NCBI GenBank assembly: GCA_036478745.1
Contig: JAZGEM010000074.1
Coordinates: 1 to 24,000 of the forward strand
DNA length: 24,000 nucleotides
Direction of reading: 5' to 3'
Source: Cocleimonas sp.
GTDB lineage: Bacteria > Pseudomonadota > Gammaproteobacteria > Thiotrichales > Thiotrichaceae
The position numbers and the translations under genes are program-made. The notes under the pieces were generated by a model. That model saw only the letters and a list, made by a program, of their open reading frames with translations. It did no database searches and had not been told where the DNA came from. Shown piece by piece: positions 682 through 14,798 of the stretch; position 1 is the first letter of the stretch, and each line of letters begins with the position of its first letter.

Positions 682-761
682 ATTTGATGAAAAATTGAAA
701 GACGGTGTTTTTACAAATTAGCGAAAATAGAAGTAACTCGCTGATTTATAAAAAGAAATAA

Positions 762-816
762 TGGTGCCCAGGGCCGGAATCGAACCGGCACGGTGTTGCC
801 ACCGAGGGATTTTAAG
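762..816 (-). repeat. Distal att-type direct repeat: duplicated 3'-terminal 55 nt of tRNA-Leu(UAA)
   Basis: tggtgcccagggccggaatcgaaccggcacggtgttgccaccgagggattttaag is identical to 14799-14853. Identity ends inside the anticodon loop. Confidence 0.9.
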
Positions 817-936
817 GGCTATATGTTTATCATAAATATCAATTACTTAGCTTTAATTCTCTTTCCTAAAGACAACAGATATTGCCTAATAAATTCAATT
901 ACTTAGAGGTTGTTTTTCCTAACTATTATGCACCTA

Positions 937-959
937 CCACCGAGGGATTTTATATCCCT
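937..959 (-). other. Degenerate tRNA-Leu anticodon-arm fragment (second att-like remnant)
   Basis: ccaccgagggattttatatccct matches 14836-14858 of the intact tRNA at 21 of 23 positions. It extends past the crossover point of the 55-bp repeat. Confidence 0.4.
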
Positions 960-1100
960 GTTTGTTTAACTTTTCTGTTAATACCTTTTTCAAAATTCTT
1001 GAACTATCCACAAATATCTATTGATGTCTATATCTAGCTACTGCAAGCTTTTCGAGTAAATTGTAACGTTATATTTCATTGTCCATCATCAACTAATCAT

Positions 1101-1130
1101 AAAAAAACCCATCAAAGAGACGGGTTTTTT
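1101..1130 (-). terminator. Rho-independent-type hairpin (A7CCC...GGGT6) downstream of the small-peptide operon
   Basis: aaaaaaaccc atcaaagagac gggtttttt. A/T runs on both sides make it bidirectional in form. It lies 29 nt after the stop of the 39-aa ORF. Confidence 0.5.
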
Positions 1131-1158
1131 GGGTTATGGAATATCTCAATTAAAGAGA

Positions 1159-1278
1159 TCACTTCTTCTTTCGAGGCTTCTCATAAGTCGCCCAAGCTAC
1201 AATAAAACCAAATACAATTAAAATTGCGGATCCTATTAATATAACCTTTGAGCTTGTTGCTACTGTTAGATATATCAT
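1159..1278 (-). CDS. 39-aa small hydrophobic peptide (MIYLTVATSSKVILIGSAILIVFGFIVAWATYEKPRKKK), paralogue of 1591-1719
   Basis: Not in the ORF track (<60 aa). ATG is preceded by an AGAGGA SD. It has one predicted TM helix and a basic tail. N- and C-termini are conserved with the second copy. Confidence 0.6.
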   Translation of the reverse strand: MIYLTVATSSKVILIGSAILIVFGFIVAWATYEKPRKKK

Positions 1279-1295
1279 TACTTGTCCTCTATTTA

Positions 1296-1508
1296 TTAAT
1301 CTGTTTCGTCAAATTTATATCTGGCAAATATAATCATTCCCACCATATGAAATCCTAAATAGATAAGCATAGCCATGTTCTTTGTTTCATCTTGCCAGTC
1401 ACTTGTATGAATTAAACTCATAAAAATTGCGTATACAGATATTTGAGTGACAAACCTTTTTAACATTCCTAATTTGTTAGATTTTTTGTTGTTTTTGATT
1501 ATAGACAT
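1296..1508 (-). CDS. 70-aa two-TM small membrane protein, function unknown
   Basis: ORF track. It sits between the two paralogous peptide genes on the same strand, with short gaps. Confidence 0.5.
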   Translation of the reverse strand: MSIIKNNKKSNKLGMLKRFVTQISVYAIFMSLIHTSDWQDETKNMAMLIYLGFHMVGMIIFARYKFDETD

Positions 1509-1590
1509 ATTGTATTCCCTTGATAAGGATAGCCATGGTTAACTTCAACCAAATCTCATAAAAACTTAAGACCAAGTTATGTGTTAAAAA

Positions 1591-1719
1591 TTATTTCTTT
1601 TTTGAAGGCTTTTCGTATGTAGCCCAGGCAACAACGGCACCTATAATCACAAAAACAGCAGCGAATACCAATACTGCTATTGATCCAGATGAAGTTGTTG
1701 TAACGGTTGTATACAACAT
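1591..1719 (-). CDS. 42-aa small hydrophobic peptide (MLYTTVTTTSSGSIAVLVFAAVFVIIGAVVAWATYEKPSKKK), paralogue of 1159-1278
   Basis: Not in the ORF track. It has a strong SD (AAGGAGG, 7 nt before ATG). It shares M(I/L)Y.TV.T.S at the N-terminus and VAWATYEKP.KKK at the C-terminus with the other copy. Confidence 0.6.
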   Translation of the reverse strand: MLYTTVTTTSSGSIAVLVFAAVFVIIGAVVAWATYEKPSKKK

Positions 1720-1771
1720 TACTAGTCCTCCTTGTCTTTTAATATCAAGACAGAAAAATTATCCGTTACTA

Positions 1772-1828
1772 TCAAATTCTGTTTAATAATAATGAAATAC
1801 TGATTACCAAGACTAACTTTTTTAACAT
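1772..1828 (-). CDS. Possible 18-aa hydrophobic leader peptide (MLKKLVLVISISLLLNRI)
   Basis: ATG is preceded by a GAGGGGAG SD. It is the first ORF after the predicted promoter. It is very short, so weakly supported. Confidence 0.3.
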   Translation of the reverse strand: MLKKLVLVISISLLLNRI

Positions 1829-1860
1829 GAATATCTCCCCTCATTATTATACTAAGCAAC

Positions 1861-1925
1861 ATTATACCACAAACACTAAGATCTCCTTAGTATTTGTGTG
1901 AGGGGAAACCTTAGATTCTCTTAGA
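1861..1925 (-). promoter_or_regulatory. Promoter (TGgTATAAT extended -10, minus strand, 1861-1869) plus two operator-like elements, homologous to the 9138-9211 region
   Basis: actaag-atctc-cttagt (1875-1891) and cttagattctcttag (1911-1925) align with the reverse complement of 9138-9189 in the same order and orientation relative to the downstream gene. Confidence 0.5.
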
Positions 1926-1964
1926 CTCATGAATGCCGTTTAAATCAATACACTTGGGAAATCA

Positions 1965-2801
1965 ATGATACTAACAATTATTCTTTACTTACTAAAATTC
2001 ATAAGGTCTATTGTTCTCATGCAAAAGAAAATATTACAAGGACTAAAACATACTACTCCCGAAGCCGTAACTACAAACATCATTATTCATTCACAAAAGA
2101 AACCGCAATGGGTCACAGATGAAGTCGTCAGAATTAAAGCACTCATGCCTCATGCGAGTTGCCGCATTATTTCTTTAGTTTTTAACCAACACTTTGGCAA
2201 TAGAGAATCTGTAGGAAAAACTTTGTTAGTTACACCATTCGACAAAATCTGTATGAAATACAGATACTACGAAAGAAGATCAAAGCTCGCCCTGCTCACG
2301 CCATTCCTTTCAATAAAGTCTGGGAAATCGACTTAACTTTTATTCAGCAGCAACCCATTCTGGGTGTTGTTGAGCATCATTCCAGAAAAGCACTAACTTC
2401 TAGTACCTTTAAAACAAAAAAGCAGTATTGCTATTCTTAGAGCCTTACTAAATATTTTAGATCACACGCCTGCACCACAGTATATCCGCACTGATAACGA
2501 AATATGTTTCAACTCAAAGTTAATAAAATTTGGACTATGGTTTCTTGATATCAATCATCAGACAATTGATAAACACTGCCCTTGGCAAAATGGGAGGATT
2601 GAGCGATTCTTTGGCACGCTGAAATCAACACTTGCCAATCAGGCTAATATTAATAAGTCAGATTTTCCTTATCTAATGTACAGTTTTGAATTTTGGTACA
2701 ACAATATTCGACCACATCAAAACTTAGAAAATAAAACACCAGAATCAGTCTACCTAGCACGTATCAAAAAATGGGAAAAGAAATATCCACCAGATACTTG
2801 A
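1965..2801 (+). mobile_element. IS transposase pseudogene (rve/DDE integrase-core type; at least 2 frameshifts)
   Basis: Three frames must be joined: ...QKKPQWVTDEVVRIKALMPHASCRIISLVFNQHFGNRESVGKT / FVSYTIRQNLYEIQILRKKIKARPAHAIPFNKVWEIDLTF...HHSRKALT / ...YIRTDNEICFNS...CPWQNGRIERFFGTLK...YNNIRPHQNL. The D (WEIDLT), D (RTDNE), E (NGRIERF) triad is recognisable. IS ends were not identified. Confidence 0.75.
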
Positions 2802-3018
2802 ACAAGAAAGGATAAATTTTCTTTGTCCGTACAATGCGAAGGTTTTACTGTGCTTGCAACATGCCAAACAATGATTTTCATTTGAAAATTAACCTAGATT
2901 GTTAATTTGCTCAAAATACTTTACAGAAACATTGTATTTTGAGGGAGTATTTCAGGCTACTTTCTAAAAAATGACTCTAAAATGATTAAGGAGAATACCG
3001 CGGACAGTTCGGACAGGA

Positions 3019-3075
3019 CAATGGCTTACAAGCACGACTAACGGTTGATTTTGGCTTATGAGCGTGTGGTTGTCC
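3019..3075 (+). repeat. 57-bp direct repeat, copy 1 (downstream of the immunity gene)
   Basis: caatggcttacaagcacgactaacggttgattttggcttatgagcgtGtggttgtcc matches 5555-5611 at 56 of 57 positions. Confidence 0.85.
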
Positions 3076-3173
3076 CGTGTTTGCTATTTTTAATCAAAAA
3101 GTGCTTGAAATTAGGGAGGTGTCCATATATGTCCTTTGTTTCGGGTTGTTTTTAACAAGCATAAGTCATTGTT

Positions 3174-3566
3174 TTAATTATCAATCGAATCTGACCCCTT
3201 TGATTTTATAAGCTTGAACAGATTTATACCGTTTGTCTCTATTAAACTAACTCCAAGTTGTAAACAATTTCTATACTTAGATGGATCAATCTCATGCCCA
3301 TCAAAAATTTCATGTAGAGTAGATTTATCTATTTTTCCGAACATTAAGTCGATTTCTAGTTTCGTATACAATTCTTCTACTATACAAAAAGCCTCTTCTT
3401 TTTGTTTTTTATTTAGATCAGATACATCACCAAACAAATGATTAAATAACACAGCTAAACTACCCCATTCTTCTATCTCTTCTTCATTCAGTTCCGCATC
3501 AACTATCATCTGTTTAAACCCACCGTCAAAATAGAATCCTATTATTTTATCAATGTATTGAATCAT
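3174..3566 (-). CDS. Putative immunity protein for the RHS C-terminal toxin (130 aa, acidic)
   Basis: Its start codon overlaps the rhs stop codon by 1 nt (position 3566, ATGA). It is a small acidic protein directly after a polymorphic-toxin gene. No recognisable family. Confidence 0.6.
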   Translation of the reverse strand: MIQYIDKIIGFYFDGGFKQMIVDAELNEEEIEEWGSLAVLFNHLFGDVSDLNKKQKEEAFCIVEELYTKLEIDLMFGKIDKSTLHEIFDGHEIDPSKYRNCLQLGVSLIETNGINLFKLIKSKGSDSIDN

Positions 3567-5335
3567 TACTTAACCTCAGCTAAAAAACTCTTTCTGCCTT
3601 TTCTAACATACCTTGTTAAGCTTTCTGGGCCTTTTAGTTTGCAAAACTTATCAACTATTTTAGAAGTTCTTAATAGTGCTTTATATAACTGCTTTCTACC
3701 ATTCCTAGTCATCGTTTTTGATGACCAATCTTCTTTACTCGTCCAGTTACCTTTTCCATTTAACTCTGGTGTGTTTTTAAGTACAACATGCAATACAAAA
3801 TGAACCATTCTGTGTGTTTCTGCAGGAAGAAATAATAATGCTTGATTAGGATCACCACCTAAGTTTTTGGGAATTGTATGGTGTCCATGATTTCCATCTC
3901 CTGTATATTGTTTCTTAATATATGAAACACCTACAAAACATCCGATTTTTTTAGTTACTCCTCCCTTTCCAGATACAGTAAATCTGGTATATTGGCCTAC
4001 AGAATTTGTCCCCAGTCTTGCGCCTATATTTAATCCAGACATGAGGTTACTCATTGTAAAATACCCACTGGGATCTATACCATTGACAGGATTTGAGTCT
4101 GTATATATATACTTATTTAGAGTGATTGGGCTACATATCTTTCCCAGCCACTCATCCTGCTGAGTAAACCGCCCAACCCCTTGATCATAATACCTAGCTC
4201 TTAAGTAATATTGCCCTAAGTTTTGATCAAACTGCTCACCCGCAAACAGATAATCATTAACAGTAACACCCGTCTGATTCAGCACCTCACCAAAGGCTTC
4301 ATAATTGTATAAGTCTGTAAATGCACCTGTGCTGTCACTCAAAGCCCTCGTAGAACCCAGCCCATCATAATGATAAGTATTAGTCGTACCATTTCTAGTT
4401 TGACTAAGCAAATCATCACCATAGGTATAGCTAACCGTAGTAGCATTATTCGAGCGCTCTTCAATCACCTGAGCATAAGCCCGATTGCTGTCAACAATAT
4501 ACTGCGTGGTTTCTGATCCCGTGGTTTGGGCTTCTCTTATACCATCGGCATTGTATTGATAACTTGTGGTGCTTCCTGCATTACTGGTTTCTGTCAGTTG
4601 ATTCTTTGCATTGTAGCTATACGTTTTGCTATTGCCGTCCAGTGTTTCCGTCAGGGTACTGCCGTTATTGTCATAGGTGTAGGTTGTGCCACCTTGCTGG
4701 CTTAAACGGTCGTTATCATCATAAGTGTATTGGGTTTGTACGCCGTCTACGGTTTCATAGGTTCGGTTGCCGACCTTGTCGTAGGTGTATTCTGCATTGT
4801 AGTTTCCGTTTGTGGCATCGGTGATGGTTTCAGTCTTTAAACGATTCAGATTATCGTAGCTGTAATCCGTTACCCTGCCTGTTGCCTCGGTGATCTTGGT
4901 GCGTTTTCCTGTGGCATCTAGGCTGTAGGTATACGATGAGAGTGTTGTGCCTGCACTACTTTTATGTGTGAGTGTAGTCAATCTATTCAAGCTATCGTAA
5001 ACGTAGTTATCCGTATTGCCATTGGCATGAGTGACTTTGCTTCGATTGCCGACTGCATCATAGCTGTAGCTTGTTGTGCCTATTGCATCAGTGACGGTTG
5101 AGAGTCTGTTAAGACTATCGAAGCCATAGCCGACGATTTTAATCTCTGTGCCTTTGCTAGTTTTAAGCTGGGTTCGATTGCTTTGATTATCGTATTGGTA
5201 TTCGAGCGTTGTACCGTCGACTTGGGTTTCTTTTGTCAAACGGTTTTGGGTATCGAATGTGTAGGTGGCGGTTGATGCATGACTCGCTGAAACAGTCAGT
5301 AATATAAGAATGAGGTAATAGTGAATGCTTTGCAT
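3566..5335 (-). CDS. Short RHS/YD-repeat polymorphic toxin with an N-terminal signal-peptide-like segment and a C-terminal GHH/AHH-type HNH/EndoVII-like nuclease domain
   Basis: Many YD repeats (YxYDxxGNR / YDxLNRL). The terminal core motif is RARYYDQGVGRFTQQD...NKYIYTDSNPVNGIDPSGY (aa 379-425, the PxxxxDPxGL type). The variable C-terminal domain is 164 aa and contains GNHGHHTIPK (DNA 3878-3886 = GHH) and THRMVHFVLH. The N-terminus is MQSIHYYLILILLTVSASHA|ST. Confidence 0.85.
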   Translation of the reverse strand: MQSIHYYLILILLTVSASHASTATYTFDTQNRLTKETQVDGTTLEYQYDNQSNRTQLKTSKGTEIKIVGYGFDSLNRLSTVTDAIGTTSYSYDAVGNRSKVTHANGNTDNYVYDSLNRLTTLTHKSSAGTTLSSYTYSLDATGKRTKITEATGRVTDYSYDNLNRLKTETITDATNGNYNAEYTYDKVGNRTYETVDGVQTQYTYDDNDRLSQQGGTTYTYDNNGSTLTETLDGNSKTYSYNAKNQLTETSNAGSTTSYQYNADGIREAQTTGSETTQYIVDSNRAYAQVIEERSNNATTVSYTYGDDLLSQTRNGTTNTYHYDGLGSTRALSDSTGAFTDLYNYEAFGEVLNQTGVTVNDYLFAGEQFDQNLGQYYLRARYYDQGVGRFTQQDEWLGKICSPITLNKYIYTDSNPVNGIDPSGYFTMSNLMSGLNIGARLGTNSVGQYTRFTVSGKGGVTKKIGCFVGVSYIKKQYTGDGNHGHHTIPKNLGGDPNQALLFLPAETHRMVHFVLHVVLKNTPELNGKGNWTSKEDWSSKTMTRNGRKQLYKALLRTSKIVDKFCKLKGPESLTRYVRKGRKSFLAEVK

Positions 5336-5414
5336 GTGATTGATTTTAAACTATCTGATGATTGAATACAGCTTTGTTATTCTCACTCATTCTAGGGAGC
5401 AATTGTTTGCTGAT

Positions 5415-5500
5415 GCTAAAAACTGGGGAGGGTGCCATATCACATTTAACTCAGTTTTAAGTACTATTTTATTCACATGGCACCCCCCTACTTTTTAGTA
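5415..5500. repeat. MITE-like unit: two inverted copies of the ATGGCACCC(C)n..TTTTTAG motif around a 38-bp spacer
   Basis: The reverse complement of 5415-5438 (atggcaccctccccagtttttagc) is similar to 5477-5500 (atggcacccccctactttttagta). The same motif recurs at 15343, 15440 and 21084. Confidence 0.6.
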
Positions 5501-5554
5501 TCAGCGGAATAAAACCATTTATTATCAAAAAATAACCGTTTGTCGAGGCTAAAT

Positions 5555-5611
5555 CAATGGCTTACAAGCACGACTAACGGTTGATTTTGGCTTATGAGCG
5601 TTTGGTTGTCC
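5555..5611 (+). repeat. 57-bp direct repeat, copy 2 (upstream of rhs, 24 nt after the stop of the 229-aa ORF)
   Basis: See 3019-3075. Confidence 0.85.
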
Positions 5612-5634
5612 TTTGTTTTCCCTTGTTTTCCAAC

Positions 5635-6324
5635 CTACGTTAAATCAATAATCACAGTTTCATAAAAATTGTCTTTAGGTTGAAATTTTAAAGACTGGTC
5701 ATTAATAAAAACTAATTTTGCTGGTACATTTATAATATTATTATATTCATATGTCGAATAGTCACGAAAAAGAATTTCTCTTTCTGTTAGGTCTCCTTTT
5801 GTTCCTATTAAGACATATAAATGTTTTCCTAATGAATCAAAAACATATTTCAACCTTGCTGATATTTTTTTAGATCGACTCCATGTTTTTCTCGAAGATA
5901 TTTTTGTGTAAATAAAATCTAGTTTACGTATGTCCTCTAGGTGAGTATTAACAATACATCCATCCAGACCAAATTCTGCCGGTAGATCAGCAAACACTTT
6001 TTTTAAGATTTTATAAATAACCATATTCCGATCAGATATTTTTTTACATGAAACATATTTTTCAATCGAAAATCCCACGTTAACTATTGCTACATTTGAC
6101 ATAGAGTCATATTCATAAACAGGAATAGGGTGTATTTTTTTTGTTAAAAACTCTTTAGGCCATAAATGAATAACAACTTTCCCAAATTTTGAATAAACAT
6201 TTCTTTTGAAATTTATATTCAAAGCAAATAAAATACATCTTGTCTCTGCTGTGAGTTTTTGCTCATTTGAATGTCCATAATGTGTAGAAGGACTTATTTC
6301 TACCTGCTGAAGATACTTAGCCAT
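5635..6324 (-). CDS. Hypothetical protein, 229 aa, no recognisable motif
   Basis: Long ORF in an AT-rich context. It is tightly packed with the upstream ORFs on the same strand. Confidence 0.55.
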   Translation of the reverse strand: MAKYLQQVEISPSTHYGHSNEQKLTAETRCILFALNINFKRNVYSKFGKVVIHLWPKEFLTKKIHPIPVYEYDSMSNVAIVNVGFSIEKYVSCKKISDRNMVIYKILKKVFADLPAEFGLDGCIVNTHLEDIRKLDFIYTKISSRKTWSRSKKISARLKYVFDSLGKHLYVLIGTKGDLTEREILFRDYSTYEYNNIINVPAKLVFINDQSLKFQPKDNFYETVIIDLT

Positions 6325-6415
6325 TTATTTCACCATTATTATTTACATACTGGACGAAGATTTCCATCAGGATTTCTTTTATGCTGTCCATAAAACTTAC
6401 CACAGACCCAACCAT
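6317..6415 (-). CDS. Possible 32-aa bridging ORF (MVGSVVSFMDSIKEILMEIFVQYVNNNGEING), or a frameshift scar
   Basis: Its ATG starts 2 nt after the stop of the 276-aa ORF. Its end overlaps the ATG of the 229-aa ORF by 8 nt. No SD seen. Confidence 0.2.
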   Translation of the reverse strand: MVGSVVSFMDSIKEILMEIFVQYVNNNGEING

Positions 6416-6417
6416 AT

Positions 6418-7248
6418 TCAACTACAAGAGCTGCGTAACGTCCGGGTAAAGCTCATTGTAATTAATATTAAGGATTGCTCAGAAGAAACCGCCCAATCCC
6501 ATGCTGTTTGATTTTCTATTATGAGAGCTTTATAACTGTAGTCATTACCGTTCAACAAGGCAGATAACACAAACCCATATGCTTCTATAAATGAGTCTGC
6601 TTGTATTGTTACCTTGGATATTTTAATAAGGCCTTCGTGTAATTTTGTAGTTGCTTCAGTATTTCCTTCAAGGAAAAATGTGGTTGTAAGTTGGTGGGCT
6701 GTGTAGTTAGAAAATATTGACCATGCTTGATCAAGATCACTCATTCCTGTTACCCTTTTTCCAATGACGCCAGCAAACCAGCGATGAACAGCAGGACTGT
6801 CTTGTATCCAGTTGGCTAGAGATTCAGCATTATGTGCTCGAATATCTTTCCATAGTCCGTTATCAAGTTGTTCTTTAACCCAGTTGTCTTTTTTAGCCCA
6901 GTGTCTTGGGGAGATGAAGATATAAGTATCTTTATTTCTGTTTAATGGGGAGGCATCATTTGTTCGTTTCTCATAGTCGCTATTGGCTTTGCCTTTAACA
7001 CTTTTATCTGTACCAATTTCCCATCCTGACATTCCTTTTGGAATGTACTTGTTCCCATGCTCGCTTTTTACAATTCCATCCCAGCCTTCGTTGGAAACAG
7101 AGTCTCCAGAAGGAAAATTAACATCAGCTTTATTATCGCAAGTAAGTACCAGTCGCTTTATAAGCTCAGGCAGTAATATTTCTGCCTTCTTTTTATTTGT
7201 GGCTACCCAGTTTTTAATGTCGTTTGCTGTTATGTACCATCCTGTCAT
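6418..7248 (-). CDS. Hypothetical protein, 276 aa; Trp-rich N-terminal module of about 170 aa; possibly a truncated N-terminal part of a larger protein
   Basis: ORF track. Segments LPELIKRLV...FPSGDSVSNEGWDGIV...GMSGWEIGTDKSVKGKANSDYEKRT...YIFISPRHWAKKDNW look like a conserved globular domain. A PD-(D/E)xK-like D...E..K arrangement is conceivable but unproven. Confidence 0.55.
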   Translation of the reverse strand: MTGWYITANDIKNWVATNKKKAEILLPELIKRLVLTCDNKADVNFPSGDSVSNEGWDGIVKSEHGNKYIPKGMSGWEIGTDKSVKGKANSDYEKRTNDASPLNRNKDTYIFISPRHWAKKDNWVKEQLDNGLWKDIRAHNAESLANWIQDSPAVHRWFAGVIGKRVTGMSDLDQAWSIFSNYTAHQLTTTFFLEGNTEATTKLHEGLIKISKVTIQADSFIEAYGFVLSALLNGNDYSYKALIIENQTAWDWAVSSEQSLILITMSFTRTLRSSCS

Positions 7249-7459
7249 GTGTTTAACCGATTTTTTGTAATGAAATAATTTCCACAGTATTTGATATTGT
7301 AAGACATCATATAAAGTTGTCTATATATAAAAAATATTAAACAACAGCTTTGAATTACTGGCAAATATTTAAATCTCTCTCATTCACTCTTTTGACTAAC
7401 AAGAGGGAGAGAGTTTTATGTAGCATGTATTTTTTAAAATTATATAGTAAACCTTGGAA

Positions 7460-7497
7460 AGTCCCATATAATGACCTATAATACCCATATTGGGACT
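7460..7497. promoter_or_regulatory. Inverted repeat AGTCCCA-N24-TGGGACT spanning two TATAAT boxes, immediately upstream of the wHTH-MNT gene
   Basis: agtcccatataatgacctataatacccatattgggact ends 12 nt before the ATG at 7510. It is a candidate autoregulatory operator and promoter. Confidence 0.35.
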
Positions 7498-7509
7498 ACA
7501 AGGTTTTAA

Positions 7510-8118
7510 ATGTTACAAGCAACCACCATTGCAGATTCACTTTTTACTAAAACACAGCAAAAAGTTATGGGGTTATTATTTAGAAAGCCCGACACTTCAT
7601 TTTATTTAAATGAGATTGTAAGACTTGCTGATATGGGCAAAGGGACAATTAAGCGTGAGCTTGAAAAAATGACTCAGGCAGGATTGTTGACGGTTAAACG
7701 TATCGGCAACCAGACTCACTATCAGGCTAATCCAGCGTCTCCTGTTTATGATGAGCTAATTTCAATTTCTCGTAAAACATTTGGACTTGCAGATGTTATT
7801 CGTCAAGCTCTTCAGACTGATAGTTCTTTTTTAGCTGATGACTCTATTCAATATGCTTTTATTTATGGCTCTATTGCAAAAGGTGAAGATACGGCTCAAA
7901 GTGATATTGATTTAATGATTATTGGGGATGGTTTAGCTTATACAGATATGATGAATCTATTAATCCCAATTGAAAAAGAGTTACAACGCCCGATTAATCC
8001 AAGTATCTATACGCTTGAAGATTTTAAGAATAAACTGAATGAGAATAATAGCTTCATCACGCGAGTTTTAGAGCAAGAAAAAATCAATGTAATTGGAGAT
8101 ACCAATGCCATTAGATAA
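7510..8118 (+). CDS. Winged-HTH (ArsR/MarR-like) fused to a minimal nucleotidyltransferase (MNT) domain; antitoxin-like
   Basis: The N-terminus LNEIVRLADMGKGTIKRELEKMTQAGLL is wHTH-like. YGSIAKGEDTAQSDIDLMIIG is the GS...DxD NTase signature. Confidence 0.75.
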   Translation: MLQATTIADSLFTKTQQKVMGLLFRKPDTSFYLNEIVRLADMGKGTIKRELEKMTQAGLLTVKRIGNQTHYQANPASPVYDELISISRKTFGLADVIRQALQTDSSFLADDSIQYAFIYGSIAKGEDTAQSDIDLMIIGDGLAYTDMMNLLIPIEKELQRPINPSIYTLEDFKNKLNENNSFITRVLEQEKINVIGDTNAIR

Positions 8119-8524
8119 GCTGGAAAACCTTGTCAAAATTGGTCAGCTAAAACATGAGCTACCTGATCAAAATGAATTTGATGGTATGGTGGCATCTGCT
8201 GAAATTCGTTTAAATGATGCGAAGCTTGGTGGATTGTCTCAAGATGGTAAATTTACACTTGCCTATGGCGCTGCTCATGCTTTATCACTTGCTGCGATGC
8301 GCTGGCATGGTTATCGCTCTGAAAATCGTTATATGGTATTTCAATGTCTTGAACAGACATTGGGATTAGAAACTGTAAAATGGCGTGTACTAGATCAATG
8401 CCACAAGCGCAGAAATATTGCAGAGTATGAAGGTCATTTAGAGATTGATTCTCAGTTGTTGAATGAATTAATTGAAATCACAACAGAGCTTTTAGAGCTT
8501 GTTAAAGATTTAGGTGATCTATAG
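8105..8524 (+). CDS. HEPN-like helical protein partner of the MNT gene (non-canonical motif)
   Basis: The ATG at 8105 (or TTG at 8093) overlaps the MNT stop at 8118. ...FTLAYGAAHALSLAAMRWHGYR...HKRRNIAEYEGH resembles the RNxxxH region of HEPN toxins, but E occupies the usual H position. Confidence 0.55.
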   Translation: MPLDKLENLVKIGQLKHELPDQNEFDGMVASAEIRLNDAKLGGLSQDGKFTLAYGAAHALSLAAMRWHGYRSENRYMVFQCLEQTLGLETVKWRVLDQCHKRRNIAEYEGHLEIDSQLLNELIEITTELLELVKDLGDL

Positions 8525-8653
8525 CGGGTGTGTCAATTTTGTGTCACAACATCTGTAAGCTATTTTGATATTTACTAGCAGTTACTGGCACATTAATGAT
8601 GTGCAAACACCGTAAGTGACTGTTTGTTAATGATATGAAATTTACTGTGGTGC

Positions 8654-8698
8654 CTTTTAATCAATTGGTCGAGCATTCGAATCGCTCACGACCCACCA
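8654..8698 (+). pseudogene. 3' fragment (anticodon loop to CCA) of tRNA-Lys(UUU); att-site remnant
   Basis: cttttaatcaattggtcgagcattcgaatcgctcacgacccacca parallels the E. coli lysT 3' half (CTTTTAATCAATTGGTCGCAGGTTCGAATCCTGCACGACCCACCA). No 5' half (GGGTCGT...) is present upstream, and the T-stem is damaged. Confidence 0.75.
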
Positions 8699-8797
8699 TA
8701 GAATTCAAAGGGTTACAGGTTTTTAATTTGTAGTCCTTTTTTATTTTACTTCCTATTTGCTACTTCCGGTCTATTTTCAGACTATTTGTTTTTTCTT

Positions 8798-9115
8798 TTA
8801 TCTCTCCTGAAGAACCTTAATAATCTTAGCTTGTATACTCTTATTTGTATTAAAAAATAATAAAACTAACTCAGCTAATTTATCATCATCGGCATAAAGA
8901 TATGTAACAGGAATGGAGAGTGCTTTTGCAAGGCGCTGCGCTGTTGCATAGTCAGGTACGTGCTTATCCCTCTCATATTGATTAATTCTTGGACTTGCTG
9001 AAAATTCATCAATCCCTGCAAGTATCCCTAATTGTTTTTGAGAAACCCCTTTTTCTATTCGAGCTGATCGAAGTCTTCTTCCAACGGGTGAATTTTCTGC
9101 CTTCTTTGAACTCAC
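8798..9115 (-). CDS. XRE-family HTH transcriptional regulator (105 aa, GTG start)
   Basis: GRRLRSARIEKGVSQKQLGILAGIDEFSASPRINQYERDKHVP is a classic XRE HTH. It is divergent from a promoter carrying two palindromes. Confidence 0.8.
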   Translation of the reverse strand: MSSKKAENSPVGRRLRSARIEKGVSQKQLGILAGIDEFSASPRINQYERDKHVPDYATAQRLAKALSIPVTYLYADDDKLAELVLLFFNTNKSIQAKIIKVLQER

Positions 9116-9137
9116 TTTAGCGCCTCTTCATACGAGG

Positions 9138-9211
9138 CTAAGAGAATCTTAGGTTTTTGTTTACTTGGATACTAAGGAATCCTTAGTATTGAGAGTGTAA
9201 TCTGCTATAAT
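9138..9211 (+). promoter_or_regulatory. Divergent control region: palindromes ctaagaGAAtcttag (9138-9152) and atactaaggAtccttagtat (9169-9189) plus extended -10 TGcTATAAT (9203-9211)
   Basis: Perfect 6-bp and 10-bp inverted arms read directly. Both share a CTAAG/CTTAG core. The -10 faces the + strand gene at 9273. Confidence 0.55.
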
Positions 9212-9272
9212 GAGGTCGAAACTGTGCAGAGCAGTGCTTTTGTAAGTCAATCGATCAACCAAGGAGGACAAT

Positions 9273-9589
9273 ATGAATCACACTAACGCAAACAAGTTCA
9301 AGAAAATATCGATAATGAATGGTTAGGCTCAAACCAAGTTGCCCTTGGTAAATCATCTAATCGTTTTGTTTCTGGATCATGTAAAGTCATTGGCTTTTTG
9401 TTTGTCACTGCCTTTGCACTTGCAATCGGACTTTTAAAGCTGTTCTTTGCCTTTGCGGGTAGTGCTTCTGAGGTTGCTGATCATGAACATCGATTAGGTG
9501 AAGAAGATCCAAATAGCAGTTTTGACCTAGATCAAACTGAAATGAATCCTGCAAATATACATTTCAAACCTAAGCAATTTACTGATTAA
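9273..9589 (+). CDS. Small single-pass membrane protein; apparent frameshift between the SD/ATG (9273) and the main frame (open from 9287; track ORF 9398-9589)
   Basis: AAGGAGG SD plus ATG at 9273 gives only 17 codons. The frame encoding ...NIDNEWLGSNQVALGKSSNRFVSGSCKVIGFLFVTAFALAIGLLKLFFAFAGS... has no ATG before the TM segment. Confidence 0.4.
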
Positions 9590-9617
9590 TAACCCTCAAA
9601 TAATATTGAGGGTTATT
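9588..9617. terminator. Bidirectional terminator hairpin between convergent genes
   Basis: aataaccctcaa-ataata-ttgagggttatt forms a perfect 12-bp stem. Confidence 0.6.
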
Positions 9618-9621
9618 AATA

Positions 9622-9813
9622 TTATTTAGCCATCTTTGGTTTCTTAACTCTACTTGCAGAACCTTGACCCGAAGATGTTGCACTTCCCGCGCCTGACGCG
9701 CCCTCTCCTGACATACCTCCTATAGCATTAGCACCTAAAATACCAATTGAAGCTAACATCGTAAACCACCACTTTGTAAACAGCAGATAGATAATTAAGG
9801 AAATAATGCCCAA
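9622..9813 (-). CDS. Small membrane protein with a Gly/Ser-rich tail (63 aa, TTG start); may be the 3' part of the decayed upstream gene
   Basis: ORF track. Non-ATG start, overlaps the upstream ORF by 19 nt. Confidence 0.35.
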   Translation of the reverse strand: MGIISLIIYLLFTKWWFTMLASIGILGANAIGGMSGEGASGAGSATSSGQGSASRVKKPKMAK

Positions 9814-10383
9814 GCGGCATGACCAATTGAAGTTACTCCTTCAATATAAGATTTATCACCCCATATATTTGCCAATAAAACTTGATCAATCCAAGCGGCA
9901 ATATGCCAAATTCCCGGCATCATTGATATACCAAAAAACAGTACAACCAACTGAACCACACGGTCTAATCGATAAAGATTTAATATTAAAATAATGGGAA
10001 GCAGCATAATGAGAACCAGCATGGCTACCCCTAACATAATGGGTAATATAAATTTAATAAGCTGCGTGGGAACCTCCAGAAAGAAGGTGCCTATATGGGC
10101 AAAAATAGCCGCCAGTTTGTTTTTAATCCATGTCAGGGGGTTTGATGATTCTGAAGAAGTAGAATCGGCTGATACGCTGGCTATTTCTCCAGGGCCTAGT
10201 TTTGAATGAAATAACCGATCGAGCTTGTCTGCACTGAATAAAGCCCCAATTAATTGTTGGCTCAGTTACAGAAGATTTATGTTGAGATATTGCACCCGCT
10301 GCTACCCCAATTTTCTTAGCGAGTTCTTTTTAAGATAGTTTACTTAATTTACGCGAGGCTTGAATTGCCGAATAAAGTAACAC
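9795..10383 (-). pseudogene. Decayed gene: XRE-type HTH N-terminus fused to a multi-TM region
   Basis: Minus-strand reading from the GTG at 10383 gives LLYSAIQASRKLSKLS*KELAKKIGVAAGAISQHKSSVTEP, with an in-frame TAA at 10330-10332. A frameshift is needed near 10262 to enter the frame ...SADKLDRVISFKLGPGEIAS...TWIKNKLAAIFAHIG...ILPIMLGVAMLVLIM..., which contains the 80-aa track ORF. Confidence 0.45.
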
Positions 10384-10539
10384 TAGTATTATCCAACAAC
10401 CCCTATGCTGAACTTATACCCAAAGAGCAAGTAGTGTCATGGAGGAGTCCTAAAAGGAAGCTCCTTGATACTGCTTAAACGATGGGTAAAATTTCAGGTT
10501 TAAGGGATGGAACTATTCAATATTAAAATAATTAACTCT

Positions 10540-10575
10540 CATACGTCACTATCGGTAATTAGATAGTGACGTATG
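10540..10575. repeat. Perfect 14-bp inverted repeat (catacgtcactatc-N8-gatagtgacgtatg)
   Basis: Read directly. It lies in a non-coding stretch. Confidence 0.6.
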
Positions 10576-10594
10576 CAATTATCATTGCTACGTA

Positions 10595-10614
10595 AGGGCG
10601 TAAGCCCTATTTTT
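10595..10614 (+). terminator. Small GC hairpin with tetraloop plus T-run (agggc-gtaa-gccct-attttt)
   Basis: Read directly, 20 nt after the 14-bp hairpin. No annotated + strand gene ends here. Confidence 0.4.
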
Positions 10615-10851
10615 GGGAATGCCAGCAGGATTATCTGCAATTTTATTGCATCTATTGAAACTAAATTTTAGAAGACATGGAAACACAAGCTAGTCAATTC
10701 AATAATGCATTTAATTGTTTTTCAGATTTAAAAGACGAACGAATCAAGATGCCTCCGGCGGGGTATCTCGAAGAACGAGAAGTAAACCAATCCAATCCAT
10801 GTCTTCATGGCATATTTTACAAGCCTCTTTTGTGATTAAGGTGACATGCGA

Positions 10852-10916
10852 ACTAAGAATACCTTAGCATACAGACAAAAAAACCAAGATTCTCCTAGCC
10901 TCATTTAATTGAGGCT
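10852..10916 (+). promoter_or_regulatory. Third, degraded copy of the dual-operator region, plus a 5'-UTR hairpin of the XRE pseudogene
   Basis: actaagaataccttagc (10852-10868) and ccaagattctcctagcc (10884-10900) align with the reverse complement of 9138-9189. The hairpin is agcctca-tttaat-tgaggct (10897-10916). Confidence 0.45.
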
Positions 10917-10921
10917 ATATA

Positions 10922-11233
10922 GTGAATATTAAGAAAGAAGCAATTTCACCTGTTGGAAAAAGGCTAAGATCTGAACGGACAGCTAAAGGAATATCCCAAA
11001 AACAATTGGCTTTTCTGGCAGGGATTGATGAGTTTTCTACAAGCCCAAGGCAATCAATACGAAAGGGACAAACACGTCCCTGATTTTGCTACAGCCCAGC
11101 GCCTAGCTAAAGCACTTTCTATTCCTGGACTTACCTTTATGTAGAAGATGATAAGTTAGCAGAATTTATATTAGTGTATTCTTCTGCTACAAAAGAGACC
11201 AGACAAACTATTATAGATAGTCTTAGTTTATAA
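10922..11233 (+). pseudogene. Frameshifted paralogue of the XRE regulator at 8798-9115
   Basis: Three frames must be joined: VNIKKEAISPVGKRLRSERTAKGISQKQLAFLAGIDEFSTSPR / NQYERDKHVPDFATAQRLAKALSIPGLTFM* / YLYVEDDKLAEFILVYSSATKETRQTIIDSLSL*. It is collinear with the intact protein across 2 frameshifts. Confidence 0.75.
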
Positions 11234-11952
11234 ACACATTTTTAATCGCAAAGCGTAAAACTCAAGTGGCTTGATCCCGACTTGGATATCTGACAATGGT
11301 GCTTTTCCATTGTGAAGAATCCAACGTATGGCATTACAAAGAAAGACACATTATGCATATCGTTTGATGTACTGTTTTGTTTGGATTCCTAAATATAGGC
11401 ACAAGGTATTCTGTAATACCCAATCTTACTGTTTTGAAGGAATAATCGAGAAAGCTGATTAAAACTACAATATTGATATAGTTTAGTTAGAAATACCACA
11501 GAACCATATTCAGATGGTGTTCGTCGAATCACAACGATGTCACCAAATGATGTGATGCAATTGATCAAGAGCATTCAACAAGAGAGTTTTAGGGTTCCAA
11601 AGATAAAAAAACACATTTTGGGGCTGTTAGTTATGGATTCAGAGTTACTCTACAAGACGATAGGTAATGTGAATGGAGATACTACTAGCGTTTATGTTCG
11701 AGACCAGCTTACAGAGTTTTAGAAAAAAGAAGGTACGTCAATACAACTAGGTTCGTTTTAAACGTGGCTTGCTTGCGTCCGAGCTTATTATTTATCTAAC
11801 ATATAAAGTTTTATGATAAGAATTTTCCGTTGATCCATTAATTAGTACCACTGGTCATTCTCAAGTTGAATGTATATGTGAATAGATTATTTTTGAGAAG
11901 CAAGTTGTTTTACAAGCAGTAAGGCTCTAACAGCGTATGGAAGGAGAGTCGA

Positions 11953-12078
11953 ATAATGCTTCCAGCATTATTATACGTTACAGTTTATTAAGCTATATGC
12001 CTAATAACAAAACATAAAAAGATAATGCCTCAGCATTATTTACAGTAACAGTTGTTAAGCTATACGCCTAATAACAAA
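11953..12078 (+). repeat. Two direct repeat units of 57-59 bp (11953-12011, 12022-12078), each starting with a short palindrome (aataatgct-tcc-agcattatt)
   Basis: The units align with about 7 differences over 59 columns (ataatgcYtYcagcattatt...acagttKttaagctataYgcctaataacaaa). They lie about 310 bp upstream of the recombinase gene. Confidence 0.8.
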
Positions 12079-12387
12079 TAAGATTGGGTTACCACATCTC
12101 AGTCAAGTTCATTCATTCCTAGAATGAACATTAACATTTAATCATGTTTTATCACATGTACATCTCATGTATGCATGGCGTTTGCCTGCGACTTTTTCCA
12201 TCCAACAGGAGGAATATCTGTTTATGTCATAAATAAAGCTTTGTCTTTGAGCAGTCAACAGACTAACAAAGATTTGCCTTTTATAGGCCTTATTTTAATC
12301 ACTATTACCCCTATGGGCCTTTGCCAGTCGTATAGATTGACAATGAGTGACGAACACTAAGCAAGTAACTTTTTTAACAAATAAATA

Positions 12388-13269
12388 ATGGAGCTTATTA
12401 TGAGTAAACTGACATGGGAACTTAAAATATTACAAAGGCGTAATCATGATGGAGGACGTAGTACACAACACAACCGAAAGAAGATTTTAATCCAAATTGC
12501 AAAACAGTTGAAAGAAATAGGATTTAATCAGATGGGCATACACAGCTTAAAAGCAAAACATACGATTAAACTGGTGGACAAATGGAAAAAAGAGGATCTA
12601 AATCCTGGAACTATTAAAAATCGTATGGCGCATCTGAGATGGTGGGCTTCTAAGGTAAATGCCACACACAAAATCCCTACTAATAAGCAATTAGGAATTG
12701 CCCAGCGCATTTATATAACAAACGTAGACAAATCAATTGTTCTTAAGCAAGAACATCTCTCAAGAATATCAGATCCCTTCCTTAAACTAAGTCTAAGGTT
12801 ACAGTCTGAATTTGGTCTACGCCGAGAAGAAAGCATTAAATTTATTGCGGCTTTTGCAGACAAAGGCAAATCTATATCTTTAAAAGATACCTGGTGTAAA
12901 GGTAAAAGAGCAAGGGAAATACCAATCATCACCGATTCACAACGAAAATTAATAGATGAAATTAAAAGATTTACAGGAGATAAATCTTTAATACCTCAAG
13001 ATAAGATGTACAAACATCAGTTAAATAAATATCGAAATAATGTCACAAAAAATATCATTGGTTTTAGCAAAGGCCACGGACTTAGACATAATTACGCACA
13101 ACAGAGATATAAAGCATTATCTGGTAATAACTGTCCACTACAAGGTGGAAAGCACCAAAGAGATATGACAAATCTTGAGCGCAACAAAGATAGAGAAGTA
13201 AGGCTCATCATTTCTGAAGAATTAGGTCACTCACGTGAACAGATTACATCATCATATTTAGGAAGTTAA
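12388..13269 (+). CDS. Tyrosine recombinase (small 'Integrase_1'-like type, 293 aa)
   Basis: Catalytic signature in order: GLRREES (R), KGKRAREIPI (K), HGLRHNYAQ (HxxR), LGHSREQITSSYLG (H...Y). Confidence 0.8.
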   Translation: MELIMSKLTWELKILQRRNHDGGRSTQHNRKKILIQIAKQLKEIGFNQMGIHSLKAKHTIKLVDKWKKEDLNPGTIKNRMAHLRWWASKVNATHKIPTNKQLGIAQRIYITNVDKSIVLKQEHLSRISDPFLKLSLRLQSEFGLRREESIKFIAAFADKGKSISLKDTWCKGKRAREIPIITDSQRKLIDEIKRFTGDKSLIPQDKMYKHQLNKYRNNVTKNIIGFSKGHGLRHNYAQQRYKALSGNNCPLQGGKHQRDMTNLERNKDREVRLIISEELGHSREQITSSYLGS

Positions 13270-13351
13270 TTTCATAAAAGCAGCTAAAGAGCAATAGAGC
13301 AATTGCTTTTAGCTGTGTATTTGGAAGAACAATTATTTAGGAGTATATTAA

Positions 13352-13573
13352 ATGCAAGACTCACTAATTACTTATGAACAGCTTAGGGAAGTATTTGGAG
13401 GTTCATCTACAGCAGAAGTTGTTGTTCGCCTTGAAAGTCAGGATATCCCATATAAACTGGGAAAACGTGGTTGTCCAATTACAACATTTAGCGCTCTAAA
13501 TCATGCAATGGGCATTACAAGCAATGAATCTCCTATAATTAAAGAACATACACCAACAATTGAGATAGAGTAG
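13352..13573 (+). CDS. DUF4224-like small protein (possible excision/recombination directionality factor)
   Basis: 73 aa, ends 2 nt before the integrase start. ITYEQLREVFGG...RLESQDIPYKLGKRGCPITTFSALNHAMG fits the DUF4224 pattern seen upstream of phage integrases. Confidence 0.5.
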   Translation: MQDSLITYEQLREVFGGSSTAEVVVRLESQDIPYKLGKRGCPITTFSALNHAMGITSNESPIIKEHTPTIEIE

Positions 13574-13575
13574 TT

Positions 13576-14694
13576 ATGACTAGACAGAGAAAGATCAAGA
13601 CTAAATACAATATCAAATACGTTCATGAAGCAAATGGGCGACTTGTCTATAGACCTTATATAAAAAAGTCAGAAAGATATGAAGGTATCATTGTTGATAA
13701 GAAAGGCTTTTTAAAACCACCAATCAAATTAGGTAAGCCTGGTGATGACGCAGACCTTATTATGAGGGCGTATCTAGCAGTTAAAAATCAATTAAAAAAC
13801 CAAGATAGAATAATCAAAGGCACCTTAGGCTATATAGTCCAAGAATATCAAGACTCGCGCCAATATAAAAACAAAGCAGCAAGTAGCCAAAAACGTGATA
13901 AAAATTTAATTCGCGTTCTTGAACAAAAAACAAGAATTGATAATAAACCTTCGACTCTTTCAGATATTCATATCGATTTTATTACAAAACCCCTGATAAA
14001 TGCTATCGCAGAAAAACGTTTAGCTGTTTATAAACAGAATGGAAGAAAAGGTGAAGTACAGGTAAACCGAGAAATAACTTTTTTAAGCGGGGCAATCAGT
14101 TGGGCAGTGAACTATTTGCCCAATTTAGGTATTAATGTTAACCCTCTGCTAGGAATTAAAAAAATTAAAGAACCCAAAAATGAACGCTATGTAACTGATG
14201 AGGAGTATTACAAGCAATATAAAATTAGCAGCGAGGTTTCACCATACTTACAGCCTGCATTTGAACTTACTTATCTTATGGGCTTAAGAGGCTCAGAAAC
14301 ACTTGATATAAGGGTAAGTGATTGTACAGATGCTGGCATTAGGACTCATCGTAGAAAGGGTTCTAAAGACAATATAGTTGAATGGTCAGAGCGTTTAAAA
14401 AATGCTTATGAACATGCATTACTATTGCATAAGGATCATAAAATCTTAGAAATAGATCCTCACCTCATTATTGGTGATACAGGAGGTAAGATGCCGAAAA
14501 GCACTTTTGATGATGCTATGCAAAGATTAAAACGAAAAATGAGTTCTAAAGGTTTAAGTAATACATATTGGAGCTTACACAAGCTTAAATCCAAAGCTCA
14601 GAGTGATGCTAAAAATAAAGATATTAGTGGATTGTCAGAATCTATGAAGCGCCATTACGACACCAAACTCCATAAGGTTGACCCCGCCAGATAG
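13576..14694 (+). CDS. Tyrosine integrase of the tRNA-Leu island (372 aa)
   Basis: Size, position next to the tRNA 3' end, and LMGLRGSETLDIRVSD (Arg I), HRRKGSKDNIVEW, LHKLKSKAQSD (HxxK instead of HxxR), MKRHYD (Tyr). Confidence 0.8.
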   Translation: MTRQRKIKTKYNIKYVHEANGRLVYRPYIKKSERYEGIIVDKKGFLKPPIKLGKPGDDADLIMRAYLAVKNQLKNQDRIIKGTLGYIVQEYQDSRQYKNKAASSQKRDKNLIRVLEQKTRIDNKPSTLSDIHIDFITKPLINAIAEKRLAVYKQNGRKGEVQVNREITFLSGAISWAVNYLPNLGINVNPLLGIKKIKEPKNERYVTDEEYYKQYKISSEVSPYLQPAFELTYLMGLRGSETLDIRVSDCTDAGIRTHRRKGSKDNIVEWSERLKNAYEHALLLHKDHKILEIDPHLIIGDTGGKMPKSTFDDAMQRLKRKMSSKGLSNTYWSLHKLKSKAQSDAKNKDISGLSESMKRHYDTKLHKVDPAR

Positions 14695-14798
14695 CAATCT
14701 TTTTCCTAAAAGTAGTATTCTTTTTCCTAAATATAGAGTTGCTTGAAGAATTTACTTAGTTAGAAAAACCATAAGCCGCTGATTTTAATGAAAATAAA

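Follow-up and report, generated by a model that had tools for sequence, protein, structure and literature searches.

The rhs locus and its layout

The 24,000 nucleotides at the start of contig JAZGEM010000074.1 from Cocleimonas sp. (assembly GCA_036478745.1; this whole stretch is referred to below as the window) carry a short rhs gene followed directly by an immunity-like gene, both on the minus strand. The rhs open reading frame (ORF) occupies 3566..5335 and encodes 589 residues, with its ATG at 5335 and its stop codon at 3566–3568, and the immunity-like ORF at 3174..3566 encodes 130 residues; on both, the ORF list and the sequence agree with the first-pass annotation. The 1-nt overlap between the two genes that it reported is likewise present, but the sequence at this point is TAATG (TAA 3568–3566, ATG 3566–3564) and not ATGA. 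Four contigs from different samples, among them one of 3.16 Mb, carry the rhs ORF intact and with no sequence differences. The locus is an RHS polymorphic toxin of a known type whose tip and immunity protein each represent a new family, that of the tip being HNH-like.

From its N- to its C-terminus the protein comprises a signal-peptide-like leader (residues 1–20, MQSIHYYLILILLTVSASHA; 5276..5335, minus strand like all parts of the gene), assigned by a crude rule on the h-region and the −3/−1 residues, and a β-sheet of YD repeats (residues 21–344; 4304..5275), which corresponds to the last third of an RHS shell according to AlphaFold2 (AF2) modelling and shell alignments. These are followed by the Rhs-associated core (residues 345–425, with RARYYDQGVGRFTQQDEW and the terminal NPVNGIDPSGY; 4061..4303) and by a basic C-terminal toxin domain with an HNH-type signature (residues 426–589; 3569..4060), recognised from its family profile, from profile matches in the PDB and from the AF2 model. 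The predicted catalytic β-β-α segment, H485-H486...H508...H512, which is based on conservation and the model, lies at 3800..3883. A direct repeat flanks the two genes (left copy 3019..3091, right copy 5555..5627), a hairpin of the repetitive extragenic palindromic (REP) kind is found between rhs and the ORF upstream of it (5425..5488), and the entire cassette is carried by an integrative island (746..14885) that is delimited by the duplicated 3′ part of a tRNA-Leu(taa) gene and includes an integrase gene.

Repeat shell and Rhs core

The Pfam scan of the rhs protein gave RHS_repeat (PF05593; E = 6.6e-27) over nine stretches, and the NCBIfam scan gave YD_repeat_2x / TIGR01643 (1.4e-15) and Rhs_assc_core (TIGR03696; E = 8.7e-19), the latter spanning residues 345–424. 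NPVNGIDPSGY closes the core at residues 415–425, DPSGY being residues 421–425. The YD repeats and the canonical core that had been read from the sequence are therefore borne out by curated families. A homology search returned 3943 relatives; among the best 120 of these, most begin directly in the YD repeats. Within the core, R379, R381 and F390 are invariant in 60 homologues, and D394, D421, P422 and G424 are nearly invariant.

In the PDB, residues 208–425 could be aligned by sequence with residues 942–1152 of RhsP, and residues 46–424 with residues 1472–1878 of 8qja. The AF2 model consists entirely of β-hairpins over residues 21–370, with predicted local distance difference test (pLDDT) values above 90, and matches Rhs, teneurin and Tc shells at E ~1e-25 on their C-terminal part. 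Target-normalised template modelling (TM) scores are 0.16–0.24 against shell cores of ~1000 residues; closed β-cages are built from ~1000 residues or more, and only ~400 residues of repeats are present here. Neither Pfam nor NCBIfam revealed a PAAR, prePAAR, VgrG-binding or plug domain in the protein, in which a mere 20 residues precede the repeats. Domain scans and shell alignments thus confirm the earlier description of an unusually short shell devoid of these N-terminal parts, and put its size at about one third of normal.

Relationship to giant RHS proteins

In the closest relatives from reference genomes (46–57% identity), the 420-residue YD region of the query forms the C-terminal end of giant ORFs. 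One of these, with 3284 residues (L010), begins with the signal peptide KLKNILALLVKVSVGFVCLNAYA|ADP and continues through Big_9, He_PIG and cadherin-like domains into the RHS repeats. Another, of 4385 residues, is encoded on a Calothrix plasmid, a relative of 2384 residues (L019) has an N-terminal hydrophobic segment, and the other giants exceed 2590, 1935 and 1877 residues. Those large relatives whose N-terminus is visible carry a signal peptide or cadherin/Ig domains, and a PAAR domain is found in none. The RHS lineage concerned is of the Sec type, not the PAAR/VgrG-linked type served by type VI secretion systems (T6SS). Because the YD region of the query matches the C-terminal ends of giant RHS ORFs, there is little doubt that the rhs gene is a 5′-truncated derivative of a giant Sec-type RHS, of whose shell about one third has been kept. 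A protein with the same tip family, P0123, is itself an orphan behind a 5190-residue cadherin-domain protein, at whose C-terminus YD repeats are followed by a core of the Rhs type.

The nearest relative (L001; GCA_002754915.1) is 75% identical at the DNA level and covers only window positions 5257 to 4140, corresponding to residues 27–398. Homology starts abruptly at FDTQNRL, just downstream of the leader of the query, and stops near the end of the core (residue ~398); the tip is common to only a few of the best 120 homologues. The L001 fragment thus shares the 5′ boundary of the query, and it possesses neither a start codon nor a leader. It is found within a decayed rhs array together with another YD fragment, Imm8 and orphan NucA/B toxins, and it is a textbook silent orphan by the definition of Poole et al. 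2011 (PMC3150448).

Over the 372 codons shared with L001, the ratio of nonsynonymous to synonymous substitution rates (dN/dS) is 0.088 with dS being saturated, which indicates that the YD part evolved under constraint at the protein level. Gene conversion from functional full-length copies could also explain such a low ratio.

The N-terminal leader and export

The leader MQSIHYYLILILLTVSASHA is followed by ST, with a possible cleavage site at SHA|S. It contains an uncharged h-region, YLILILLTV, and small residues at −3/−1 (S-H-A|S), as the crude rule demands, and its n-region, MQSIHYY, is free of K and R, so that the rule is passed only if K or R is not required. About 3.5% of random stop-free leaders with the base composition of the island pass the same rule. 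Chance can by no means account for the repeats, the core and the conserved pairing of toxin and immunity gene; the same does not hold for the resemblance of the leader to a signal peptide. Of the Sec-like N-terminus proposed in the first-pass annotation, the hydrophobic core and SHA|ST can be seen, but the positive charge is missing and random leaders look alike at this rate. The same annotation had envisaged that longer homologues might expose the ORF as a 5′-truncated fragment with a fortuitous hydrophobic start; the truncation has become evident in this way, but the fortuitous start is left at the chance rate just given.

The leader retains the skeleton of a YD unit, Y-Y ... L. T-V ... H .. 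T, as seen when FTYWDNDQLKTVIDQHGTT is compared with IHYYLILILLTVSASHAST, and polar positions of the preceding YD unit of the homologues have become L, I, A or S. Scored on a position-specific scoring matrix of 80 homologous upstream units, it lies above its own shuffled versions (p ~0.04) and above unrelated signal peptides. This weak colinearity with the preceding YD unit is suggestive only; a hairpin of the type TVTDQHGTT may have given rise to TVSASHAST, the replacement of polar residues by L or I forming a signal peptide. A foreign origin of the leader, also considered, is unsupported in view of the colinearity.

Short RHS proteins with a signal peptide and this tip recur elsewhere. P0136 (700 residues) and P0137 (657 residues) consist of a signal peptide, ~500 residues of repeats, the core and a tip of the same family, and four small proteins (P0148, P0152, P0174 and P0180) combine a signal peptide with the Rhs core motif and this tip. 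In P0092 (886 residues, same RHS clade), AGGAG precedes a signal peptide with Lys, which is followed by ~575 residues of repeats, PT-HINT and a toxin; its gene sits behind an unrelated gene. At the L008 locus one and the same signal-peptide coding DNA heads both a 1379-residue and a 700-residue RHS (3393–3440 and 8040–8090), and at L007 a leader is repeated downstream (8001–8080, 12695–12988), the second copy ending in a stop codon. The sequences of these two loci suggest that signal-peptide leaders may be part of an exchangeable cassette boundary there. As four independent lines, P0136 and P0137, the small proteins, P0092 and these repeated leaders lend credibility to the architecture of the query.

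We regard it as an even bet that the locus is a self-contained toxin–immunity cassette which descends from the 3′ part of a giant rhs gene of the Sec type and acts as a stand-alone mini-RHS. Translation from the ATG and Sec export via the leader, which would make the toxin independent of a T6SS, are as evenly poised, and our overall confidence goes no higher because Sec export is the weakest step. In favour of stand-alone function are the ATG, the intact ORF, the low dN/dS, the bracketing repeats described below, the short signal-peptide relatives and small proteins listed above, the weak colinearity of the leader with a YD unit and the lack of a nearby full-length rhs gene, since no other YD ORF and no full-length rhs were found in the window or within the 10 kb on each side of the locus in the 3.16-Mb contig (L022). 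A word-index search with the 41 N-terminal residues for a full-length rhs gene sharing the leader yielded no candidates.

The competing explanation that survives best, with somewhat under an even chance, is that of a silent orphan in the sense of Poole et al. 2011 (PMC3150448) and Jamet and Nassif 2015 (PMC4436062). The gene would be a 5′-truncated rhs-CT/immunity remnant, its start an accidental AT-rich junction, and only the immunity gene would be expressed, protecting against kin that fire the same toxin; rhs would serve at most as a substrate for recombination with a full-length rhs located elsewhere in the genome. A number of findings point in this direction and weigh against a functional stand-alone toxin. 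The N-terminal part is missing while homology to the core is kept, as expected of an orphan module, rhs being only the 3′ end of full-length genes with products of >1,877 to 4,385 residues. The L001 fragment begins at the same 5′ boundary, lacks both a start codon and a leader, and lies in a decayed setting. The leader lacks K and R and about 3% of random leaders also pass the crude rule, and most of the best 120 homologues begin inside the YD repeats with no signal peptide. As for the short relatives, P0136 and P0137 sit downstream of large rhs genes, that is, in an orphan position, and the c-region AALAEA of the ‘signal peptide’ at L007 is common to an internal stretch of the main gene there. 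Judged from the shell alignments, a sheet of 400 residues would not be able to enclose a toxin of 164 residues as the canonical shells of ~1000 residues do. No convincing promoter for rhs was seen, a promoter scan returning fewer sites than in shuffled sequence and thus being uninformative, and a terminator-like hairpin lies ~90 bp upstream, while the immunity gene has a GAGG of its own. The missing Shine-Dalgarno sequence before the rhs ATG, correctly reported at the outset, would belong to the same list, though it carries little weight: it was not counted as evidence, since roughly every second gene in the window, ligA included, has none.

Other findings do not fit a silent orphan. Neither the window nor the flanks in L022 contain a main rhs gene, so that the adjacency to a full-length rhs that marks orphan modules is not seen. 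Classical orphans are without initiation signals (PMC3150448), but here an ATG at 5335 and a signal-peptide-like leader are present. The ORF is intact and its YD part has a dN/dS of 0.088, short signal-peptide RHS proteins recur, one of them with a clear ribosome-binding site, and the leader looks more like a YD unit that has been remodelled than like random DNA (p ~0.04).

The C-terminal tip

The tip (residues 426–589) is a domain of 164 residues with an isoelectric point (pI) of 10.3, in which GNHGHHTIPK (residues 482–491) and THRMVHFVLH (residues 507–516) are found as first described. An exhaustive profile search among 1.84 billion proteins returned only 97 representatives of this family. 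In every case the domain forms the C-terminal end of the protein that carries it, and the hosts include RHS, PT-HINT, Ig-domain and small signal-peptide proteins. Across 65 and 48 family members, four residues (H486, H508, H512 and D562) never vary, and H485 and G494 hardly do. Only four matches, with no useful names, came from a word-index search with the tip profile, and tblastn of the tip against plasmids gave none.

Pfam showed no match for the tip alone even at E ≤ 10, Tox-GHH, Tox-GHH2, AHH and HNH included, and for 48 members of the tip family no toxin family appeared in Pfam at E ≤ 5; NCBIfam yielded none either for the tip or for these relatives. Membership in Tox-GHH or AHH was consequently rejected, as neither the query nor its 48 relatives match these profiles. 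The best NCBIfam match of any family member is to the HNH-bearing IscB (E = 0.023). Searching the entire PDB with the tip profile resulted in exactly three matches, all of them HNH nucleases and all aligned on HHxxPxxxGG...H...H, namely McrA (E = 0.02), the HNH domain of a group II intron maturase (0.05) and the pyocin AP41 DNase (0.16). In the AF2 model of the tip, calculated from an alignment of 48 sequences, residues 479–589 have pLDDT values above 88. Strands at residues 483–486 (HGHH) and 500–503 and a helix at 505–520 bearing H508 and H512 make up a β-β-α arrangement, with a His in the position of the general base at the end of the first strand and His residues in metal-binding positions on the helix, as in HNH enzymes. 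The canonical Asn of HNH motifs is not clearly conserved in the family; a conserved Q is nearby. The spacing is 22 residues from HH to H and four from H to H. In colicin E9 the distances are 24 and 4 (H102/H103, H127, H131).

Sequence conservation and the model together indicate that the tip is probably an HNH-type nuclease which represents a new family within the HNH superfamily and is distinct from Tox-GHH/AHH. The first-pass annotation had called it compatible with the GHH/AHH branch of HNH toxins, of which the HNH-type signature is supported, the model showing β-β-α topology, while the branch is not, given the lack of a Pfam match to either family; confirmation at the level of the fold did not come from Foldseek. 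A less probable alternative, which we consider unlikely, is that the tip is not a nuclease and that the histidines serve another metal-dependent activity or a structural zinc site. The HNH evidence is indeed weak: the E-values in the PDB are 0.02–0.16, no curated family matches, and a Foldseek search of the tip model against the PDB found no HNH structure and nothing with an E-value below 4. These points count against a nuclease, as do the invariant D562 and the helical C-terminal half, which have no counterpart in minimal HNH motifs. On the other side, the top three PDB matches and the best NCBIfam match are all HNH proteins aligned on one and the same segment, the histidine spacing agrees with the colicin-type motif, and a basic domain is paired with an acidic partner.

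The immunity gene

The 130-residue product of the downstream gene (3174..3566, minus strand) has a pI of 4.5, as opposed to 10.3 for the tip, and no signal peptide, and a GAGG is located 8 nt upstream of its start. It has no family in Pfam, NCBIfam or PADLOC. Homologous small ORFs are nevertheless found behind related toxins: P0016, whose tip is 68% identical, is followed by an ORF of 124 residues that is 50% identical to the immunity protein, P0121 (tip 56% identical) by a homologue of 127 residues (E = 1e-13 to 1e-21), and P0123 by an ORF of 122 residues with a weaker link. The acidic ORF thus co-varies with the tip in other genomes and, on these sequence grounds, is very probably the cognate immunity protein. 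This supports the earlier reading of the gene, and a variable tip with a cognate immunity gene downstream of it is a hallmark of RHS polymorphic toxins. The earlier view of the locus as such a toxin, complete with its canonical core, is supported.

More distant tips (P0006 at 48%, P0045, P0136 and P0137) are followed by members of an unrelated family. The family of the query comprises acidic proteins of ~125 residues and is represented in the window at 3174–3566 and in L003, L028 and L027, and the other comprises proteins of ~300 residues with Cys-x-x-Cys pairs (QVYRCTW...) and is represented in L020, L021, L007 and L008. Since toxin tips of 48–68% identity occur with two unrelated immunity families, the immunity partner must have been switched or replaced within the tip family.

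Repeats, island and neighbouring genes

The 73-nt direct repeat at 5555–5627 has its twin at 3019–3091, just past the immunity gene, with 90% identity overall and 98% over a 57-nt core. The two copies enclose the entire unit of 2.5 kb, which takes in 220 bp upstream of the ATG. Within each copy, TGGCTTAYRAGC occurs as two sub-repeats at a distance of 30 nt that have the look of binding sites for proteins. Candidates for the origin of the repeat are an attachment (att) site, a miniature inverted-repeat transposable element (MITE) or a duplication, and a 25-mer from its core had no match in JGI metagenomes. The Logan contig L024, at 2549 bp, has almost exactly the length from repeat to repeat.

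A second element, the hairpin GGGGAGGGTGCCAT...ATGGCACCCCCC at 5425–5488, is situated ~90 bp upstream of rhs and has a long loop and T-runs on both strands. Its right arm recurs at 15343, 15440 and 21084 in intergenic positions outside the island, with the motif ATGGCACCCCCC(C)T..TTTTT. Going by these features the REP-like hairpin could be a bidirectional terminator. Where a single MITE-like repeat ~80 bp upstream had been proposed, repeats do exist, but there are two different ones, the hairpin and the 73-nt direct repeat. Rfam detected three tRNAs only and nothing for the repeats.

The island is ~14 kb long and integrated at tRNA-Leu(taa), the 3′ part of which is duplicated at 746–816 and 14783–14853 (71 nt, 92% identity). 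A tyrosine integrase (372 residues, 13576–14694) and a second integrase-like gene (293 residues) adjoin the tRNA, together spanning 12388–14694, and tRNA-Cys and tRNA-Gly come after tRNA-Leu. In L001, a YD fragment at 6957–7805, upstream of the orphan, starts with MYLAPRPGLEPGTNRL, which reads like the translated 3′ end of a tRNA; going by this resemblance, the rhs array of L001, too, borders on an attachment site of the tRNA type.

Two ORFs on the minus strand lie directly upstream of rhs at 5635–6324 and 6418–7248 (229 and 276 residues), for neither of which a family was found in Pfam, NCBIfam or PADLOC. An overlapping pair on the plus strand, 7510–8118 and 8093–8524, matches PDC-M05 A/B, a candidate defence system in PADLOC (E = 2.8e-81 and 1.9e-62). 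As the first of these genes is a nucleotidyltransferase of the MntA/Polbeta type, the pair is probably an MNT-HEPN-like toxin–antitoxin or defence system carried on the island. A 139-nt inverted repeat (8988–9126 and 10911–11049, 73% complementary) overlaps the 5′ part of a gene for a helix-turn-helix regulator at 8798–9115, which suggests a diverged inverted duplicate ~1.8 kb away.

Beyond the left end of the island an N-terminal integrase fragment of 173 residues is encoded at 118–639 on the minus strand. On the 3.16-Mb contig this fragment is followed by an IS21 element (IstB and transposase) and a pair of helicase and MZB-domain genes, and in assembly L023 a BCCT transporter is found at the left flank instead. 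The left flank of the island therefore varies between strains, possibly by tandem accretion of islands.

Discussion

The cassette is most readily compared with orphan rhs-CT/rhsI modules, which Koskiniemi et al. reportedly treated in 2014. Like these it consists of a 5′-truncated rhs with core sequence, a variable toxic tip and an immunity gene directly downstream, and P0123, P0136 and P0137, which share its tip, do occur in arrays behind large rhs genes. Unlike them, it is not beside a full-length rhs but on a tRNA island, begins with an ATG of its own and a leader that resembles a signal peptide, and has kept an unusually long stretch of the shell (~400 residues). With the giants of the Sec type, such as WapA of Bacillus subtilis and the cadherin/Ig-RHS proteins L010 and L027, it has in common the clade (46–57% identity over the last 420 residues) and the logic of core, tip and immunity; the giants have a signal peptide in place of PAAR. 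It differs from them in having no N-terminal adhesin-like domains and in lacking about two thirds of the shell, with 589 residues as against roughly 2,000–5,000.

As to the tip, the HNH DNase toxins (colicin E9/Im9, pyocin AP41 4uhp and RhsB-CT of Dickeya dadantii 3937) likewise present HH...H...H on a strand-strand-helix unit and likewise pair a basic toxin with a small acidic immunity protein encoded directly downstream. The differences are that no significant match of sequence or fold to them exists, that the tip has an additional helical C-terminal half with an invariant Asp, and that the immunity protein is unrelated to Im9, two unrelated immunity families being used by close relatives of the tip. 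The Pfam families Tox-GHH and AHH are said to derive from work of Zhang, Iyer and Aravind in 2011–2012. The query shares their G-H-H motif, the conserved His-bearing helix that comes after it and their role as tips of polymorphic toxins, whereas their profiles match neither it nor any of the 48 relatives.

The T6SS effectors RhsA (7q97), RhsP (8h8a/b), Tse5 (8cp6), Tse15 (8uy4) and Tre23-Rhs (7pq5) resemble the query in their YD β-hairpin fold, in a core that has conserved aspartates and ends in DPxG, and in the position of the toxin after the core. The query differs in its shell of about one third and in having no PAAR, prePAAR, VgrG-binding or plug part, and no T6SS genes are nearby: neither the window nor the 10 kb on each side in L022 contains PAAR, VgrG, chaperone or other T6SS genes. 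With no prePAAR or PAAR and only 20 residues before the repeats, a prePAAR/transmembrane-domain effector was rejected. That the short Rhs is loaded onto a VgrG or PAAR spike by an adaptor encoded elsewhere is very improbable: it would agree with the structural matches to T6SS shells and with the role of most characterised Gram-negative Rhs toxins as effectors of a T6SS (PMC4436062), but besides the absences just named, the full-length relatives are signal-peptide or cadherin/Ig giants rather than PAAR-Rhs proteins, and the signal-peptide-like leader would route the protein to Sec. Equally far-fetched is a half-shell completed in trans by another YD protein, as for TcC in ABC toxins, for although ~670-residue TcC chains match (4igl_B, 5kis_B, 6l7i_G; target-normalised TM ~0.3) and L001 has a separate YD ORF of 282 residues just upstream of the homologous fragment, no YD-repeat ORF adjoins rhs in the window, TcA- or TcB-like genes are absent, and the L001 arrangement looks decayed, with stop codons and 195 bp of non-coding DNA.

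If the cassette is a stand-alone mini-RHS, it would function as follows. The 3′ end of a giant rhs gene, comprising a partial shell, the core, the tip and the immunity gene, is carried on the 14-kb tRNA-Leu island. The protein would be translated from its own ATG, and the leader of 20 residues, having perhaps arisen from a YD hairpin whose polar residues became L, I, A or S, would carry it through Sec; with such a leader the cassette would act without a T6SS. The core may still cleave after DPSGY. The tip would be a metal-dependent HNH-type DNase with H486 as the general base and H485, H508 and H512 as metal ligands, as in colicin E9 and pyocin AP41, and the cytoplasmic immunity protein would block it in the producer and its kin. 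We put forward only tentatively, as a rather doubtful generalisation, that short signal-peptide ‘mini-RHS’ toxins form a genuine class that evolved repeatedly, derived from giant Sec-type RHS proteins by acquisition of a signal peptide, exported and active without a closed cage or a T6SS, and mobile on islands.

Irrespective of export, the locus defines a toxin domain, rare (97 representatives among 1.84 billion proteins) and hitherto unannotated, whose catalytic signature is HNH-like, as well as two unrelated immunity families with which close relatives of this toxin are paired, and it shows that the RHS lineage concerned is of the Sec type and not of the T6SS type. If the leader fails, it is one more orphan toxin–immunity module on a genomic island. 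If the leader works, an RHS toxin could be deployed with only a fragment of the cage, and, taken together with the proteins consisting of signal peptide, core and tip, this would put in question the obligatory encapsulation of RHS toxins; the cassette would then be a small system well suited to the study of Sec-dependent polymorphic toxins of marine sulfur-oxidising bacteria.

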